Positions 1,286 through 26,986 of a DNA stretch of 64,000 nt are shown piece by piece. Numbering within the stretch: position 1 is the first letter of the stretch; each line of letters opens with the position of its first letter. The stretch lies in assembly GCA_964342475.1 (NCBI GenBank), contig CAYFGE010000016.1, positions 2,742 to 66,741 of the forward strand, given 5' to 3'. The position numbers and the translations under genes were made by a program. This DNA is from an uncultured Planctomycetales bacterium (GTDB lineage: Bacteria > Planctomycetota > UBA1135). The notes beneath the pieces were generated by a model, which was given only the letters and a program-made list of their open reading frames with translations, made no database searches and was not told the DNA's origin.

Positions 1286-4200
1286 GCCTGGGCCTCCGCG
1301 GGGCGCCCGAAGCGGCGGTAGAGCGCCGGGACGACGATCATGTTGAGGAAGGTCGAGGTGGCCAGGCCGCCGAGGATCACCCGCGCCATCGGCGTCTGGA
1401 TCGCGCTGCCGGGCTCACCGCCGGACATCGCCAACGGCACGAGCGCCAGCGCGGAGGCCAGCGCGGTCATCAGGATCGGGATCAGGCGCTCCTCCGCGCC
1501 CCGGCGGACGGCTTCGCCGAGCTCGGTCACGCCCTCCTCGAGCTGCAGGTGCCGCACGTGCGAGATCAGCATGATGCCGTTGCGCGTGGCGATGCCGAAG
1601 ACGGTGATGAAGCCGATCAGCGAGCCGACCGAGAGGACGCCGCCGTCGAGCACCGCGCCGACCACGCCGCCGATCAGGGCGAGCGGCAGGTTGACCATGA
1701 CGAACCAGGCGTCGCGGGCGTTGCCGAAGGCGAGGCGCAGGAGGACGGCGATGCCGAGGACGACCGCCGCGCCGAGGAGCAGCAGGCGCTGCCGCGCCTG
1801 GATGGCGGTCTCGAACTGTCCGCCGTACTCCACGCGGAAGCCGGGGCGGGCTCGGACCAGCGGGTCGATGCGCCGGCGCAGCTCGGTCACCACGCTGCCG
1901 AGGTCGGAGTCGGCGATGTTGCAGGACACGACGAGCTTGCGCTCGCCGTTCTCCCGCACGACGCGGTTGGGAGTGGCGTCGCGCGCCACCTCGGCGACGG
2001 CGGCGAGGGGCTGGAGCGCGCCGTCGACGAGGACCGGGACGCGCAGCAGGTCCTCGCGCGAGGCGACCTCGCGGTCGAGGCGGAGCACCACGTCGTAGCC
2101 GTTCGTCCCCTGCAGGATCTCGGTGGCTCTGTGGCCCTGGAAGGCGGCCTCGAGGGTGGCGGCGGCCTCCTCCACCGTGAGCCCGCGCCGGCCCAGCTTC
2201 GTCCGGTCGAGCCGAACCTGCAGCTCGGGCACGGCGACCTGCTGCTCGACCGCGAGGTCGACCACCCCGGGCACGCCCTCGGCCGCTGCCCGAACGTCCT
2301 CCGCCAGACTGCGCAACTCGCCGAGCTGCGCGCCGAACAGCTTGACCGCCACCGCGGCGCGCGTGCCGGAGAGCATGTGGTCGATGCGGTGCGAGATCGG
2401 CTGCCCGATCGTGAACAGGCAGCCGGGGACCAGGGCGAGGTCCTGGCGGACTCGGGCGAGGAAGGCCTCGCGGTCGACTCCCTCCAAGGACAGGCGCACC
2501 TCGTACTCGGAGGTCTCCAGCCCCTGGCCGTGCTCGTCGAACTCGCCGCGGCCGATGCGCCTGGCCACCGAGACCACCTCGGGGTGGCGCAGGAGGACCT
2601 CCTCGGTCATCCGGCCCAGGCGGTCGCTCTGCTCCAGCGAGACGCCGGGCAGGGTGACGGAGGTCACGGTCAGCGCGCCCTCCTGGAACTCGGGCAGGAA
2701 GGCCGTCCCCAGCCCGGGGACCAGGGCGAGCGCCCCGGCGAGCAGAACCAGCGAGGGCGCCCAGGCCATCCAGGGGCGGCGCAGGAAGGGGCGCAGGACG
2801 GCGCCGTAGGCGCGCTTGAAGGCGCTGGCGGCGGCCGGCTCGCTGCCCTGGCCCTTCTCGACCGCCCGCGGCAGCAGGAAGGAGGCCAGGACCGGCGTGA
2901 TGGTCAGGGCGACGAGGAGCGAGGCGCTCAGCGAGGCCACGTAGGCCAGGCCGAGCGGGAAGAGGAGCCGGCCTTCGATGCCGCCGAGGAAGAACAGCGG
3001 CAGGAAGACGAGGAGGATGATCAGCGTGGCGAAGACGATCGAGGAGCGGATCTCGACGCTCGCCCGGTAGACCACCTCGAGGACCGGGCGGCGCTCCGCC
3101 GCGGGCAGGGCGGCGTTCCCGCGCAGGCGGCGGAACACGTTCTCGACGTCGATCACGGCGTCGTCCACCAGGGCGCCGATGGCGATGGCGAGGCCGCCGA
3201 GGGTCATCGCGTTCACCGTGTTGCCCGTGGCGGCGAGGACCGCTCCCGCGGCGACCAGCGACAGCGGGATGGCCGTCAGCGTGATCAGCGTGGCACGGAA
3301 GTTGGCGAGGAACAGGCCCAGGACCAGCACGACGAGCAGCGCGCCGTCGCGCAGCGCCGTGGTCACGTGCTGCACCGAGGACTCGATGAAGTCGGACTGG
3401 CGCAGCAGGTCGCGCCGCAGACCCATCCCCGCGGGCAGCTGGGCTTCCAGCTCGTCGAGGACCCCGTCCAGCCGCCGGGTCAGGTCGAGCGTGTTGACGT
3501 CGGGCTGCTTCATGATGCCGACGACCACCGCCGGGTCGCCGTCCACCGAGCCGGTGCCCCGCGCCCGCTTCGCCCCGACGCGCACCCGGCCGAGGTCGCG
3601 GACCTGGATCGGTGTGCCCTCGCGCGACTCCACGGTCACCTGGGCGAGGTCCGCCTCGTCACGGAGGCGGCCGAGCCCGGCGATGAGGTACTCGCTCCCC
3701 TGCGTGCCCAGGAAGCCGGCGGCCACGTTGCGGTTCGCCGCGCGCAGGGCCTCGGCGACCCGGGGGACGGGGATGCCGAAGGCCTCCAGCTTGGCCGGGT
3801 CGAGCAGGACCTGGAACTCCTTCGCCTCGCCGCCGGTGGTCAGGACCTGGGCCACGCCGGCTACTGACAGCAGGCGGCGGCGGAGGACGGTGTCGGCGTG
3901 GGTGCGCAGGTCGATCGCCGAGGCGCCCTCCGACACCAGGCCGACGAAGAGGATCTCCCCCATGATCGAGGAGACCGGCCCGAGCGCGGGCCGCGACGCA
4001 GCGGCCGGCAGGTCGTCCGCGACCTGGTCGATCTTCTCAGCGACCACCTGGCGGGCACGGTAGATGTCCGTCCCCCAGTCGAAGTCGACCTGGACGATGG
4101 AGAAGCCCGTGAGGCTGGTGGAGCGGAGGCGGCGCACGTCCTGCGCGCCGTTCAAGGAGGACTCGACCGGGAAGGTGACGAGCTGCTCCACCTCCACCGG

Positions 4201-21652: not shown

Positions 21653-21656
<4 letters not shown>

Positions 21657-23875
21657 TCGCCGCCCTCCTCCTCCTGGCCGCCCAGCAGCCCGCGCCGGCC
21701 GCCGCGCCCGAGCCGGTCGAGTTGCAGGTCCTGGTCCACGAGCGCTGGTTCGCCGGCTGGGAGCACCTGCAGGCCACCGCCCGCGAGTTCGAGGCCGCGC
21801 ACCCGGGCGTGACCGTCAAGGTCCTGTCGAGCGCCGGCGCCACCGGCGGTGCCGAGAAGGTCAAGCTGGTGCTGGCCGGCGGCCTGCCGCTCGACGTCAC
21901 CTGGATCGACGTCACCGAGTTCGCCGCCTACCTGCAGGAGGACGTGCTGCTCGACCTGCAGCCGCTGTTCGACGCCGACCCGGGCTGGAACCGCGCGGAC
22001 TACTTCGAGCCGATCCTCGCCGGCATGACCGGGCCGGACGGCCACCTCTACGGGCTGCCGAGCACCTTCAACCCCTACGTCATCTACGTCAACCAGTCGC
22101 TGCTGCGGCGCGAGGGCGTGTCGCCGCCGAGCGCGGGCTGGGACTGGCAGGAGCTCCTCGAGAAGTGCCGCGCCACCACCCGCGACACGGACGGCGACGG
22201 CGAGACCGACCAGTTCGGCATCTCGTTGACGCAGTGGATGCAGGCGCTGGCGCCCTGGATCTGGCAGAACGGCGGCCGCTTCCTCGACGAGGAGGGGCGC
22301 TGCGCGCTCGACGAGCCGGCGGCGGTCGAGGCGGTCGAGTTCCTCGTGCGGCTGCTCCACGAGGAGAAGGTCGCCAGCGACGACGCCACCTTCCAGAACC
22401 AGTTCTCGGTCGGGCTGTTCCAGGCCGGGAAGACCGCCTTCTACGGGCCGGTCGGCTACTGGGAGACCTACCGCTTCCAGGACATCCCGACCGAGGCGGA
22501 GGGCGGCTTCGACTGGGACGTGGTGCCGCTGCCGGTCGGCCGCGAGGCCGCCACCTCGGTGGCGCTGCGCTTCTACGTGGTGCCGAAGGCCTCGCGGCAC
22601 CCGCAGCTGGCCTACGAGTTCGTGCGCGCGCTGGCCGGCGACACGATGCAGCACGGGCTGGCGGCGATCGGCAACGGCGTGCCGGGGCTGAAGCGGGCGG
22701 CCCACTCCCCCTCCTTCCTCGACCCGGAGCGCCTGCCCGAGAGCGAGCAGGTCTTCCTCGACGTGCTCGAGGACGCGCGCTTCCTGCCGGTCGAGGTCAA
22801 CTGGTCGGAGATCGAGAAGCAGACCAAGGCGGCGCTCGAGGAGGCGATCCTGCTCGGCCGCGTCCCGGCGCGCGAGGCCTGCGAGCGCGCCGCGGCGATC
22901 GCCGACCAGACCCTGGCGCGCGAGCGCGACCTGATGCAGCGCCCCTTCGTCGGCGCGGCCTGGTTCGGCGCCGCGCAGCTCTCGGGCGGGCTGCTGGTCC
23001 TGGCCTTCCTCGCGACGATGCTGGCGCGGCGCCGCCCCCGGCTCGAGCGGCGCGAGGAGCGCGCCGCCTGGCTCTTCCTCACGCCGTGGGCCATCGGCCT
23101 GGCCGCCTTCCTGCTCGGCCCGGCGCTGGTCTCGGCGCTGCTCAGCCTGGCCGAGTGGTCGCCGATCCAGGAACTCGGCCGCGCCCGCTGGATGGGCCTC
23201 GACCAGTACGCGCGCCTGGCCGCCGACGAGACCTTCCGCGACAGCGTGCGGGCGACCCTGCTCTACGCCGCGGCGGCGGTGCCGCTGCAGCTCGCCACGG
23301 CCCTCGGCCTGGCTCTGCTGGCCGACGGCGGCTTCCGCGGCGCCGGCCTCGCGCGCACGGTCTTCTACCTGCCGACGATCATCAGCCCGGTGATCCTCGG
23401 CTCGCTGTGGCGCCTGCTGCTCGAGCCGTGGCTGAAGGAGCCGGCGACGGTGATCCCCGCCTTCGTGCTGATGAGCCTGTGGACGGTCGGCGCGCAGATG
23501 CTGGTCTTCCTCGCCGGCCTGCAGGCGGTCGACCCGCGCCTGCACGAGGCCGCCCGCGTCGACGGCGCCCGGCCGCTGCGGCGGCTGTGGCACGTCACGC
23601 TGCCGGCCCTCGGGCCGATCCTGCTGTTCAACCTGATCGTCGGGCTGATCAACGCCTTCCAGGTCTTCGCGCAGCCCTTCGTGATGACCCAGGGCGGGCC
23701 GGGCAACGCCTCGCGCTTCCTGGCCCTCTACCTCTACGAGCAGGGCTTCCGCTTCATGCGGATGGGCTACGCCAGCACCCTGGCCTGGGTGCTGTTCGCC
23801 GGCGTGTTCGCGCTGACGCTCCTGGTCCTGCGCGGCTCGCGCCGCTGGGTGCACTACGCGGGGGCGGGCCGATGA
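21653..23875 (+). CDS. Fused extracellular solute-binding protein plus MalF/UgpA-type permease of a CUT1 sugar ABC importer (740 aa)
   Basis: A single uninterrupted ORF. Residues ~20-425 are SBP family 1-like (LQVLVHERWF..., TWIDVTEF, GLPSTFNPYVIYVN, DTDGDGETDQFG). Residues ~433-457 are an extra TM helix (AAWFGAAQLSGGLLVLAFLATML). Then comes RRRPRLERREERAAWLFLTPWAIGLAAFLLGP and a six-TM permease with the EAA loop LHEAARVDGARPLRRLW. The start codon (TTG overlapping the malK-like stop) is uncertain. Confidence 0.85.
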
Positions 23876-24690
23876 ACCGCTGGCTGCACCGCCTCCTCCT
23901 GCTCGCCCTCGTCGCCGCCTTCCTCTGGCCGCTGGCCTGGATGCTCAGCGCCAGCCTCCAGCCGCAAGGGCGCGCGCTCGGCCACACGCCCTTCGACTTC
24001 TCGGCGGGAGCGCACACCGAGAACTACCCCGAGGCCACCGCCGTGATGGGCGACCTCGGCCGGCTGGTCTGGAACACCGGCCTGCTCACCGTCGCCTGCA
24101 TCCTCGGCCAGCTCTTCTGCTGCAGCCTGGCCGGCTACGCCTTCGCCCGCCTGCGCTTCCGCGGCCGCGACGGCCTGTTCCTCCTGGTGCTGGCGACGAT
24201 GATGCTGCCGCCGCAGGTGCTGGCGATCCCGCAGTTCCTGCTGTTCCGCCAGCTCGGGCTCGTGGACACCTTCTGGCCGCTGATCCTGCCGACCGTGCTC
24301 GGCGGCGCCCCCTTCTTCATCTTTCTCTTCCGCCAGTTCTTCCTCTCGGTCCCCCACGAGCTGGTCGAGGCGGCGCGGGTGGACGGATGCCGCTTCTGGG
24401 GCGTCTACTGGCGGGTCATGCTGCCGCTGGCGCGCCCGGTGGTGGGCACCGTCGCGATCTTCACCTTCCTGGCGACCTGGAACGACTTCTGGGCGCCGCT
24501 GATCTACCTGAATTCCGAGGAGAACCAGACCCTGACCCTGGCGCTCGCCGCCTTCAACCAGAGCTACCGGGTGGCCGTGGAGTGGCTGATGGCCGGCACC
24601 TCGATGGTGCTGGCGCCCTGCGTGCTGGTCTACTTCGTGTTCCAGAAGGTCTTCGTCCGCGGCGTGCGGCTGTCGGGCGCGAAGGGGTGA
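23872..24690 (+). CDS. Sugar ABC importer permease (MalG/UgpE type)
   Basis: It is the C-terminal 272 aa of ORF 22165..24690, and its ATG overlaps the upstream stop (ATGA). EAA loop LVEAARVDGCRFWGVYWRVMLPLARP. Six TM segments. Confidence 0.95.
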   Translation: MNRWLHRLLLLALVAAFLWPLAWMLSASLQPQGRALGHTPFDFSAGAHTENYPEATAVMGDLGRLVWNTGLLTVACILGQLFCCSLAGYAFARLRFRGRDGLFLLVLATMMLPPQVLAIPQFLLFRQLGLVDTFWPLILPTVLGGAPFFIFLFRQFFLSVPHELVEAARVDGCRFWGVYWRVMLPLARPVVGTVAIFTFLATWNDFWAPLIYLNSEENQTLTLALAAFNQSYRVAVEWLMAGTSMVLAPCVLVYFVFQKVFVRGVRLSGAKG

Positions 24691-24755
24691 TTTTGATCCG
24701 CAAACCAGGCCAGGGAAGGCGACCGAGAGCAGGGTGACCTGAGGAGTGGGCTGGC

Positions 24756-24790
24756 GGGGAATCCCGCGAAGGAGGACTTGCGCATTCCCC
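24756..24790 (+). other. Interrupted hairpin between the ABC operon and the atypical islet
   Basis: GGGGAAT (24756-62) pairs with ATTCCCC (24784-90), and GCG (24766-68) pairs with CGC (24781-83). The 12-nt loop is aaggaggacttg. There is no T-tract. Its function is unknown: terminator or 5-prime UTR structure. Confidence 0.3.
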
Positions 24791-24812
24791 GCTCCCTCTC
24801 CATAATCCCACG

Positions 24813-25037
24813 ATGAAAACTATTATCAGATTCGTAACAGGACTGTCTTTGTCCGGACTTCTCTCTCCGGGGTTCGCTCTTGCACCCTTGTCGAATGCGC
24901 AAGGAGGACCGCCGTTCTCCTGCCTCTACTCCCTCGAGTGCTGCCCTCTTTCGCAGTTCTCTCTCACGATCAGTCATGGCGGAGCGGTCACCTCCCTGAC
25001 GGCCCGCTTCGTGGGCTGTACGAACCCATTGTCCTAA
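24813..25037 (+). CDS. Small Cys-rich secreted peptide (74 aa) with atypical codon usage; the frame stays open through its TAA to a TAG at 25191..25193
   Basis: Sec-type signal peptide MKTIIRFVTGLSLSGLLSPGFALA, then a 4-Cys mature part (FSCLYSLECCP...VGCTNPLS). Many A/T-ending codons (aaa act att aga gta aca tct ttg ctt gca aat caa), unlike all neighbouring genes. No SD site was seen. Confidence 0.35.
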   Translation: MKTIIRFVTGLSLSGLLSPGFALAPLSNAQGGPPFSCLYSLECCPLSQFSLTISHGGAVTSLTARFVGCTNPLS

Positions 25038-25220
25038 TCCGTCCCGAACAGTTCCTCCGCACCGATCTCGGCCTGCTTCGACTGCTGTGATGGCGAGGTC
25101 TTCTCCTGGAAGAAGGTGATGGGCACTCCCGCGGTCGACTGGGGGAGCGCCAACGCCTGCGGTGACGTGACATTGACCTGCACCAACTGCTAGATCCGGG
25201 ACTCCACCAACAACTACATC

Positions 25221-25628
25221 ATGAAGAACAACACCCATTTCATCCTCCCGCTCCTCGTCGTCCTTGCGGCCCTGGCGGGTTTCTCCGTGGCCCGGGCCGG
25301 CTTCGCCCCGGGTGAGCCGCAGCAGGGAGTCGGTGGGGTCGGGATCGTCCTCGGCGGCTCCATCCCCATCGATGAGGGGACGGGGCTGCTCTCGGCCAGC
25401 GTCATCCGGCAGAGCGATGGGGGTCTCCTCCTCGTCACCACGCTGGCGGAGGTCAACGAGTTCGGTCTCCTCGACACCTCCACTGCGGTGAGAGGTCTTG
25501 CACAGGACAGCGACGCCGAGATCGAGGTCGCGTTCTCGCCCGAGCGTGGATTCGTCATCGCCGCCACCCCCGGGACGTGGCGGGACGCCGTGACGCATCA
25601 CGGGACCCTGACCATCTCCCGTTCCTAG
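25221..25628 (+). CDS. Small secreted hypothetical protein (135 aa)
   Basis: Clear signal peptide MKNNTHFILPLLVVLAALAGFSVARA. No recognisable family. It is followed by a strong hairpin. Confidence 0.5.
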   Translation: MKNNTHFILPLLVVLAALAGFSVARAGFAPGEPQQGVGGVGIVLGGSIPIDEGTGLLSASVIRQSDGGLLLVTTLAEVNEFGLLDTSTAVRGLAQDSDAEIEVAFSPERGFVIAATPGTWRDAVTHHGTLTISRS

Positions 25629-25644
25629 CCCTCCGCAGGGTCTC

Positions 25645-25671
25645 CCCGGCCCGGTATCCCGCCGGGCCGGG
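25645..25671 (+). terminator. Perfect 10-bp GC hairpin after the small secreted-protein ORF (candidate terminator, no U-tract)
   Basis: CCCGGCCCGG (25645-54), loop tatcccg, CCGGGCCGGG (25662-71). It starts 17 nt after the TAG at 25628. Confidence 0.45.
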
Positions 25672-25675
25672 CCTC

Positions 25676-25693
25676 CCTCCATTTGCATGGAGG
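25676..25693 (+). promoter_or_regulatory. Hairpin pairing an anti-SD (CCTCC) with an SD-like GGAGG upstream of the CoA-transferase gene
   Basis: CCTCCAT-ttgc-ATGGAGG is a perfect 7-bp stem. The GGAGG (25689-93) sits 8 nt before ATG 25702, which opens a 9-codon ORF (MREPLRGGS) overlapping the GTG start at 25718. Confidence 0.3.
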
Positions 25694-25717
25694 ACGCCAC
25701 CATGAGAGAACCTCTCC

Positions 25718-26986
25718 GTGGTGGCTCCTGAACTTCCGCGATCGGTCCGCCCCTCGTCTCCCGACCCTGCCGAGGGGGCCGACTCCCTCCCCCTCGCCGG
25801 CCTGCGCGTGCTCGACCTGACGCGCATCCTCGCCGGGCCGACCTGCACCATGATCCTGGGCGACCAGGGCGCGGAGGTGATCAAGGTCGAGCGACCGGGC
25901 GGAGGCGACGACACGCGCAGCTGGGGGCCGCCATTCACCGGCGGCGAGAGCGCCTACTTCCTCTGCTGCAACCGCAACAAGCGCTCGCTGGCGGTCGACC
26001 TGGCCGACCCGGACGGCGCCGCGCTCGTGCGCGAGCTCGCCGACCGCGCCGACGTCCTGGTCGAGAACTTCCGCCCCGGTCTGACCGCGCGCTTCGGCCT
26101 CGACCACGCCAGCCTGCGCCAGCGGAACCCCGGCCTGGTCCACGCCTCGATCACCGCCTACGGCCAGGACGGGCCCTACCGCGACCGGCCGGGCTACGAC
26201 ATGGTGCTGTCGGCCGTCGGCGGGCTGATGCACGTCACCGGCGAGCGCGACGGGCCGCCGTGCAAGGTCGGCGTCGCCATCACCGACGTGCTGACCGGGG
26301 TGCACGCCGCCCAGGCGATCACCGCGGCGCTGCTGGCCCGCCACCGCACCGGCCGCGGCCGCCACCTCGACCTCTCACTGCTCGACGTGCAGGCGTCCGG
26401 GCTCGCCAACCTCGCCAGCAACTGGCTGGTCGCCGGTCAGGAGGCGACCCGCTGGGGCACCGCGCACGAGTCGATCGTGCCCTACCAGGTCTTCGACACC
26501 GACGACCGCCCGATCGCGCTGGCGGTGACCAACGCCAAGCAGTGGGACGCCTTCTGCCGCGCCGTCGGGCAGACGGACTGGCTCGACGACCCGCGCTTCG
26601 CCGACAACGCCGCCCGCGTGGCGAACCGCGCCGAGCTCGTGCCGCGCATCCAGGAGCGGTTCGCCGCCCGCGGCTGTGACGCGTGGGTCGAGCGGCTGGT
26701 CGCCGTCGGAGTTCCCTGCGGGCCGGTCAACGACCTCCAGGCCCTCTTCAGCGACCCGCAGCTGCTCCACCGCGGCATGGTGATGGAGACCCCGCACCCG
26801 ACCATCGGCACGCTGCGGATGACCGGCTTCCCGGTCCAGGCCGACGCCCCGCAGCAGGCCCTGCGCCGGCCGCCGCCGCGGCTCGGCGAACACACCGCCG
26901 AGATCCTGCGCGAGGAGCTCGGCCGCAGCGCTGACGAGATCGCCGCGCTGGAAGCCCGCGGCGTGGTGGCGGGGCTGGGCTCCTGA
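25718..26986 (+). CDS. Family III CoA-transferase (CaiB/BaiF family)
   Basis: PLAGLRVLDLTRILAGPTCTMILGDQGAEVIKVE, YFLCCNRNKRS, VLVENFRPG, GYDMVLSAVGGLMHVTG, PYQVF. Non-ATG (GTG) start. Confidence 0.9.
   Translation: MVAPELPRSVRPSSPDPAEGADSLPLAGLRVLDLTRILAGPTCTMILGDQGAEVIKVERPGGGDDTRSWGPPFTGGESAYFLCCNRNKRSLAVDLADPDGAALVRELADRADVLVENFRPGLTARFGLDHASLRQRNPGLVHASITAYGQDGPYRDRPGYDMVLSAVGGLMHVTGERDGPPCKVGVAITDVLTGVHAAQAITAALLARHRTGRGRHLDLSLLDVQASGLANLASNWLVAGQEATRWGTAHESIVPYQVFDTDDRPIALAVTNAKQWDAFCRAVGQTDWLDDPRFADNAARVANRAELVPRIQERFAARGCDAWVERLVAVGVPCGPVNDLQALFSDPQLLHRGMVMETPHPTIGTLRMTGFPVQADAPQQALRRPPPRLGEHTAEILREELGRSADEIAALEARGVVAGLGS

Follow-up and report, generated by a model that had tools for sequence, protein, structure and literature searches.

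We analysed a 64,000-nt stretch of DNA from an uncultured Planctomycetales bacterium (contig CAYFGE010000016.1; hereafter the window), in which a one-kilobase islet of reduced G+C content (GC) separates the end of a sugar ABC importer operon from a gene for a family III CoA-transferase. The islet is probably an old, dispensable and fast-evolving operon of two genes, here named A and B, that has been caught early in decay; this judgement covers the anatomy and history of the cassette and not its specific role. A would be a Sec-exported, disulfide-rich, all-beta protein of about 100 residues, and B a beta-domain protein that an N-terminal hydrophobic helix either anchors at the cytoplasmic membrane or allows to be released from it. 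From the strict pairing of the two genes and their overlapping stop and start codons we infer that the two products work jointly outside the cytoplasm, in the simplest case as a 1:1 complex. In the window A would just have been inactivated by a change from AAA to TAA, with B, a promoter-like motif and terminator-like hairpins left intact. The cassette is placed early in decay because A was broken recently while these other parts are still whole.

Gene A, its premature stop and gene B

The first-pass annotation, made from the letters of the window, had described the islet as two small open reading frames (ORFs) with textbook Sec signal peptides. ORF1 (24813-25037), the next 153 nt and ORF2 were found to share one reading frame, and past the TAA of ORF1 a Cys-rich frame continues for 51 codons to a TAG at 25191-25193. 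Lysine 75 stands at the TAA position in all four closest relatives (alignments A1 and A4), and across the wider A family this position varies among K, R, Q or T. In one congener (G001) the codon is AAA and both parts of gene A form one open frame. These comparisons show that ORF1, first described as a separate small ORF, is the leading part of a gene of 126 codons that a nonsense mutation from AAA to TAA has interrupted. Only a 74-aa precursor is possible from A in this genome. We propose that ORF1 be annotated as a nonsense-disrupted pseudogene of the 126-codon gene, not as a 74-aa protein.

Two other origins of the TAA were considered and rejected. Four independent assemblies (four runs, two studies) agree in all 451 nt around it, and the TAA is therefore not an assembly error. 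Reassignment of the stop codon was ruled out as well: no tRNA reading UAA (anticodon UUA), and hence no suppressor, was found in the genome, and TAA is the true stop of the permease gene in the sister species spX. The genome does hold a tRNA-SeC (anticodon UCA; ARAGORN position c[3343,3439]), and selenocysteine use is probable; this is irrelevant to the TAA.

The product of intact A has a Sec-type signal peptide (residues 1-24) that is kept across the family, followed by an all-beta domain of about 100 aa with nine Cys. Both halves of A carry a C...CC...C pattern, and an internal duplication was tried and rejected, since hhalign matched only the CC dipeptide (probability 0.1%). The N-termini of both products are as the first-pass annotation had quoted them: each shows, by eye, a basic n-region, a hydrophobic core and an AxA-type end, ALA↓P in A and ARA↓G in B. 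B opens with an N-terminal hydrophobic helix, from which a short linker leads to a beta domain of seven strands; this domain carries a VNEFG motif and an invariant Trp120. Its AlphaFold2 model (AF2; mean predicted local distance difference test score, pLDDT, 83.6) places the helix at residues 5-28, followed by a disordered linker, seven strands and a short helix. Orthologues are 66%, 63% and 49% identical within the genus and 27% identical in other genera. The hydrophobic helix is a signal peptide or a membrane anchor; the modelled helix, together with non-canonical cleavage sites in several homologues, suggests that B is probably membrane-tethered.

Selection was estimated as omega, the ratio of non-synonymous to synonymous divergence (dN/dS), by the pairwise Nei-Gojobori method among the window, spX and G001, and changes were assigned to branches on the three-taxon tree of the same genomes. 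Omega was 0.18-0.32 for A and 0.34-0.41 for B. On the window branch the post-stop half of A had acquired seven synonymous and two non-synonymous changes, against a neutral expectation of 78% non-synonymous (P = 6.5e-4). Because this half is still constrained on the window branch, the nonsense mutation must be very young relative to the divergence of the species. Gene B, with 18 synonymous and 28 non-synonymous changes on the same branch, is also still constrained (P 0.04 versus neutral). A and B are thus real genes under purifying selection; the first-pass annotation had named absence of such selection on either ORF among the outcomes that would speak against it, and omega values of 0.18-0.41 were found.

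The cassette within the genus and beyond

The pair occupies the same site in three sister species, in three different states. In spX, which was found in at least eight NCBI and JGI metagenome assemblies, A is intact, with 126 codons and a proper signal peptide, and the synteny is that of the window: ABC ATPase, a fusion of solute-binding protein (SBP) and permease, permease, A, B, CoA-transferase and GDSL esterase. In G003 the pair is heavily decayed: A is interrupted by at least two in-frame stops and has lost a Cys, and a 2-nt deletion in the signal region of B shifts the frame. In G001 the start of A is doubtful, its ATG being 2 nt out of frame with the body, near a poly-C tract at a contig end. 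The run of about 26 C lies just upstream of A at the G001:C237 contig end (L015 about 46-82; L014 80-95); either the assembly went wrong at this homopolymer or the tract is phase-variable.

The cassette and the same 5' junction are common to the window, spX, G001 and G003. As at least four species of the genus have the cassette at one site with one junction, it predates their divergence, and A-B would have been acquired before the window species, spX, G001 and G003 split. The description of the islet as recently acquired did not survive this comparison. Its companion, fast-evolving, did: synonymous divergence (dS) is 0.4-0.8 in the cassette versus 0.20-0.24 in the flanks, which makes it 2.5-4 times as high in A and B (Fisher P 6e-12), and dN of the cassette is also higher. 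The excess dS may reflect weaker codon or GC constraint, or occasional replacement of the cassette by recombination.

Other arrangements of the site were found in the genus. In spX the permease 3' end is repeated after B as an exact duplicate of 43 nt (L035 4990-5035), and a decayed gene for a transmembrane (TM) protein comes next. In G004 an intact TM-protein gene stands in place of A-B, and it is followed by an older, degraded permease 3' remnant (L018 2170-2222) and, further on, by a remnant of the CoA-transferase 3' end (L018 about 3900-4000). The duplicated permease remnants suggest repeated insertion that duplicates the end of the flanking gene, without a visible integrase. The TM-protein gene belongs to no family and encodes a single TM segment and a C-terminal CPxC motif (...RVRFCP[DE]CRLAE...); the copy in G004 (L018 1726-2121) is intact and that in spX (L035 5152-5547) is split across frames.

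In G002 a contig ending 36 nt past the permease stop and a contig starting about 130 nt before the CoA-transferase gene share an inverted identical 28-mer (L017 2073-2108 and L019 2975-3040), and the second contig holds the palindrome centre TGGTGCCAgatTGGCACCA. G002 would thus probably have an empty site, with a perfect hairpin at which the assembly broke; its arms of about 44 nt are unusually long for a terminator. In three other genera, unrelated convergent genes (DUF6786, GH127 and an unknown) come after the orthologous permease gene, and neither A-B nor the CoA-transferase gene is present there. The adjacency of permease and CoA-transferase genes without the insert, which the first-pass annotation had proposed to look for in related genomes, is therefore probably met with in G002; in the other genera the permease gene does not lie beside the CoA-transferase gene. 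The permease/CoA-transferase junction appears to be a variable hot-spot, of which A-B is one of the cargoes. The earlier description of a mini-cassette for small exported proteins holds in the sense of a discrete accessory cassette, absent at the homologous site in other genera and with one congener probably empty.

An exhaustive profile search of 1.8 billion representative proteins recovered about ten relatives of A, each of about 120 aa, and word-indexed searches of 5.8 billion proteins recovered only five of B. Eight A loci outside the genus have a contig that extends past A (G009, G051, G269, L052, L053, L055, L056/57 and L058), and in all eight a gene of 126-152 aa without a Pfam match follows A directly, often overlapping its stop by 1-13 nt. 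Seven of the eight partners align as B-like and have an N-terminal hydrophobic stretch, with VNEFG in the closer ones. Of the eighth, in G269 and outside the B alignment, only the N-terminal hydrophobic stretch was seen, and the B profile did not detect it. Taken over all loci whose contig reaches past A, a partner of B-like size is present in 12 of 12. The invariant core of the A family is C37, C44, C91, W110 and C116 (alignment A7). The pair's neighbours in other genera all differ: a nitrilase-like gene, aconitase, an IS3 transposase, an ECF-sigma fusion and a ThuA/GSDH protein. The IS3-family transposase pair (HTH_Tnp_1 and rve; L053 2855-3966) lies about 600 nt downstream from one distant A-B pair; no other mobility gene was seen beside any copy of the cassette. 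In an even sample of 400 Planctomycetota genomes A was present in only one or two others and B in none convincingly, and the carriers of A-B are uncultured Planctomycetota. A and B are rare but real families that are always found paired. The first-pass annotation had seen no recognisable family in them, which is correct for curated families and incomplete with respect to these two.

Profile searches and structure prediction, both of which had been suggested, were carried out for both products; models were built and no curated family was found. Pfam gave no match for A, B or their relatives, and in NCBIfam the only match, on the signal peptide, was sub-threshold. PADLOC gave no match for A or B, so a defence-system identity is unsupported, and PHROGs gave one insignificant match for B (E 0.05). 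PDB sequence profiles yielded nothing meaningful for either. With thresholds of E < 0.001 or TM-score > 0.5, Foldseek of model A against PDB reached a best E of 2.9, and model B a best E of 0.066 with TM-score at most 0.35 against PDB and a best E of 0.1 against BFVD. A scan of metagenome contigs with the A profile gave no match. A plasmid or phage origin was rejected, as tblastn found neither A nor B among 72,556 plasmids and 50,697 phages.

Composition, flanking genes and RNA-like elements

The features of the islet and its flanks are collected in Table 1.

Table 1. Features of the A-B cassette and its flanks; positions are those of the window.
Feature	Position	Strand	Description
Gene A	24813..25193	+	126 codons, interrupted by in-frame TAA; frame reading, sister-species orthologues, family alignments
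Premature stop TAA	25035..25037	+	Replaces Lys codon (AAA in spX and G001) of conserved motif S-K-[ST]-[VMT]-P
Gene B	25221..25628	+	135 aa, intact; genus orthologues, AF2 model, alignment A6
Promoter-like motif	24778..24806	+	TTGCGC, 16-17 nt spacer, (C/T)ATA(A/C)T; ends 6 nt before the ATG of A
Downstream hairpin pair	25645..25693	+	17 nt past the stop of B; 11-bp stem at 25645-25671, 7-bp stem at 25676-25693
Upstream imperfect hairpin	24753..24793	+	In the 122-nt spacer after the permease gene; minimum free energy (MFE) -28.2 kcal/mol, z -2.3
Islet	24691-25717	–	Low-GC stretch between the MalG-like permease gene and the CoA-transferase gene
MalG-like permease	23872..24690	+	Last gene of the sugar ABC importer operon; Pfam BPD_transp_1, E 3e-25
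Family III CoA-transferase	25718..26986	+	Right flank of the cassette; Pfam CoA_transf_3, E 2e-134

The islet had been singled out as visibly less G+C-rich and, in ORF1, as rich in A/T-ending codons, and both observations were confirmed. Its GC is 0.57 versus 0.74 for the window, of which it is the lowest-GC stretch. In a 300-nt sliding window (mean 0.739, or 73.9%; standard deviation 0.039) the minimum of the whole 64 kb was reached at 24801 (GC 0.573), more than four standard deviations below the mean. GC at third codon positions (GC3) was 0.65 for ORF1 (24813-25034), 0.73 for full gene A and 0.86 for gene B, versus 0.93-0.99 for the five neighbouring genes. The 3.36-Mb assembly contains 74 islands with GC <= 0.62 over 400 nt, of which the islet is one, and the islet falls in about the lowest 1% of 400-nt windows genome-wide; its composition is unusual, not unique. 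Far larger and deeper low-GC islands (to 0.43) occur elsewhere in the genome (C12:13601-15750, C17:69551-74400 and C11:80351-84150), and these are better candidates than the islet for recent horizontal acquisition.

The low GC has two sources, a composition rich in Ser, Thr, Cys and Asn (GC at first codon positions 0.46 for A) and a true deficit of G/C-ending codons. The deficit was present in every host examined. Cassette GC is 0.45-0.49 in G051, whose host value is about 0.57, and 0.56-0.59 in G009 (host 0.65-0.70), that is 8-12 GC points below the host; the spX and G001 cassettes have a GC3 of 0.66-0.76, lower than the window copy. Such a deficit of G/C-ending codons is the usual signature of patchy, horizontally exchanged accessory genes.

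The cassette starts directly after the stop codon of the MalG-like permease gene, which has about 90% DNA identity in congeners and an omega of 0.047 versus the sister species. Upstream of it, 21653-23875 is a single 740-aa ORF with SBP_bac_1 (family-1 solute-binding) and BPD_transp_1 domains, an SBP-permease fusion that is also called in spX (743 aa). In agreement with the first-pass annotation, the 64-kb window holds no tRNA, and Pfam detected no integrase or transposase domain among the flanking genes scanned. No meaningful flanking direct or inverted repeats were found in the window.

The hairpins that had been reported to bracket the islet are real, the downstream pair as described and the upstream one weaker. 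The pair after B (MFE -36.1 kcal/mol, z -4.97) has no U-tract, and since no U-run follows the stems a classical terminator scan finds none. U-less terminators are common in high-GC bacteria. A strong hairpin of unrelated sequence stands at the same place in G001, spX and G003 (z -8.5, -3.5 and -3.5, respectively). This placement fits an operon-end terminator or 3' stabiliser. The upstream hairpin may terminate the ABC operon. It was rejected as a conserved regulator, its structure not being conserved; shuffled sequence folds at least as well as the corresponding stretches of spX and G001. No hairpin matched Rfam at E <= 1.

The promoter-like motif, TTGCGC-N17-CATAAT in the window copy, is conserved in three species (alignment A9 of the window, spX, G001 and G003) and lies below the threshold of a consensus scan. 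It is a possible promoter for a leaderless or nearly leaderless A mRNA. There is no purine-rich Shine-Dalgarno sequence upstream of A, where the leader is pyrimidine-rich.

Alternative readings and comparison with known systems

Three alternatives to an old operon in early decay concern the state and origin of the cassette. If both ORFs were unexpressed pseudogene remnants, with low GC produced by AT-biased mutation under relaxed selection, then the premature stop in A, the lesions in both genes of G003 and a GC3 well below the genome norm would all be expected. However, B is intact with a synonymous excess on the window branch, the post-stop half of A is strongly constrained there, the putative terminator and the promoter-like motif are kept, and GC3 of the window copy exceeds that of the intact spX copy, the opposite of AT decay; we consider dead DNA improbable. 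Recent horizontal acquisition by this genome, as first proposed, would account for the atypical GC and GC3 and for the raised synonymous divergence, which could mean replacement from a more distant donor. It is made very unlikely by the insertion site and 5' junction shared with spX, G001 and G003, by tree distances of the cassette (66-82% aa) that fit a genus-level age, and by the lack of mobility genes, tRNA or flanking repeats in the window. Programmed read-through or recoding of the TAA, by which full-length A would still be made, is scarcely credible. The frame is open and constrained for 51 codons past the stop and the TAA allele is fixed in all assemblies seen, but the four closest relatives have a sense Lys codon and hence no conserved recoding signal, the genome has no tRNA with anticodon UUA, spX uses TAA as a genuine permease stop, and a U follows the stop (TAA-T). 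TAA-T is an efficient bacterial termination context.

With regard to role, A might be an exported toxin acting on the cell envelope and B the producer's membrane-anchored immunity protein, our best guess, which we hold tentatively. A is predicted to be exported with a signal sequence and a gene for a small membrane or periplasmic partner lies directly downstream as a pair; the module is autonomous, mobile, GC-poor and repeatedly inactivated, and in the window A was lost before B. About equally likely is an envelope or nutrient-acquisition accessory, in which a secreted A would have a binding or structural function and B would tether it to the membrane; within this genus, such a pair might serve the adjacent sugar importer and esterase neighbourhood. 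In at least four species the genes follow a CUT1-type sugar importer operon in the same direction, both products are predicted to be beta domains outside the cytoplasm, purifying selection is moderate and not diversifying, and an expansion of orphan B genes is absent. Against an accessory, the neighbours differ in every other lineage, and in other genera, as probably also in G002 and G004, the importer operon lacks the pair; the cassette carries a promoter-like motif and a putative terminator of its own and has repeatedly been lost or broken. A still broader proposal, that A-B is a new Sec-dependent antagonism module of Planctomycetota, with both folds new, together with an integrase-less hot-spot that duplicates a 3' end and has a palindrome of 44-nt arms at its empty site, would be unlikely to hold in full.

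Several findings weigh against our interpretation of the cassette or against its most specific form. The AF2 model of A, with seven strands and an all-beta fold, is of moderate confidence (pLDDT 69). The defects in G003 and G001 rest on single metagenome-assembled genomes. No known family or fold was matched by A or B, and no described toxin/immunity family was matched in Pfam, NCBIfam, PDB profiles or PADLOC. Among the 400 genomes of the phylum no expansion of orphan B was seen and B was not more widespread than A, no export or lysis function lies beside the pair, and in G003 B decays as well, which speaks against toxin and immunity. The islet is not a fresh acquisition, and nothing found shows it to be a bacteriocin locus.

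A great many exported proteins of Planctomycetota lack annotation, and to our knowledge almost nothing is known of how these bacteria compete with neighbours. The analysis defines two always-paired families that are under selection, have no detectable curated or PDB relatives, and come and go, with exchange, at a variable site. If the toxin/immunity reading were true, a new fold pair would be added to bacterial antagonism; if not, the pair would still be a clean candidate for work on the structure and function of the planctomycete envelope.

The nearest counterparts in organisation are, we presume, pairs of a Sec-dependent bacteriocin and its immunity protein, for example of the lactococcin 972 or enterocin P type. 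There too a gene for a small protein with a Sec signal is followed by one for a small membrane-associated protein, in an autonomous, patchy module with GC below that of the host and often inactivated. A-B differs in having no sequence or fold similarity to these, no dedicated transporter and no ABC immunity gene; its host is a planctomycete with an outer membrane. We take pairs of effector and immunity protein that act in the periplasm, such as the Tae/Tai- or Tse/Tsi-like pairs of the contact-dependent type VI secretion systems (T6SS), as a second comparison. These also place a partner with a signal or anchor directly downstream, often overlapping, and they lose the effector more readily than the partner, as in the window, where A is broken and B intact. 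Unlike T6SS effectors, A has its own Sec signal; no secretion-system genes were seen near any locus, and no toxin domain was detected with PADLOC or Pfam.

As a site, the junction resembles small islets and hot-spot cassettes at conserved 3' ends, in that the cargo differs among congeners (A-B, the TM-protein gene or nothing) and a second copy of the flanking gene's 3' end stands behind the insertions (spX, G004). Unlike integron-like or tRNA-gene-like sites, the window site has no integrase, attC-like repeat, tRNA or transposase. Of the marks of an integrative element or integron, the window showed no tRNA, flanking repeats or Rfam match, and only spX and G004 keep permease 3' duplicates. The lesion in A itself is like that of an ordinary nonsense pseudogene, in which a conserved sense codon has become a stop through one substitution and the frame beyond it stays open. 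It differs from such a pseudogene in being so recent that the downstream half keeps its signature of purifying selection.

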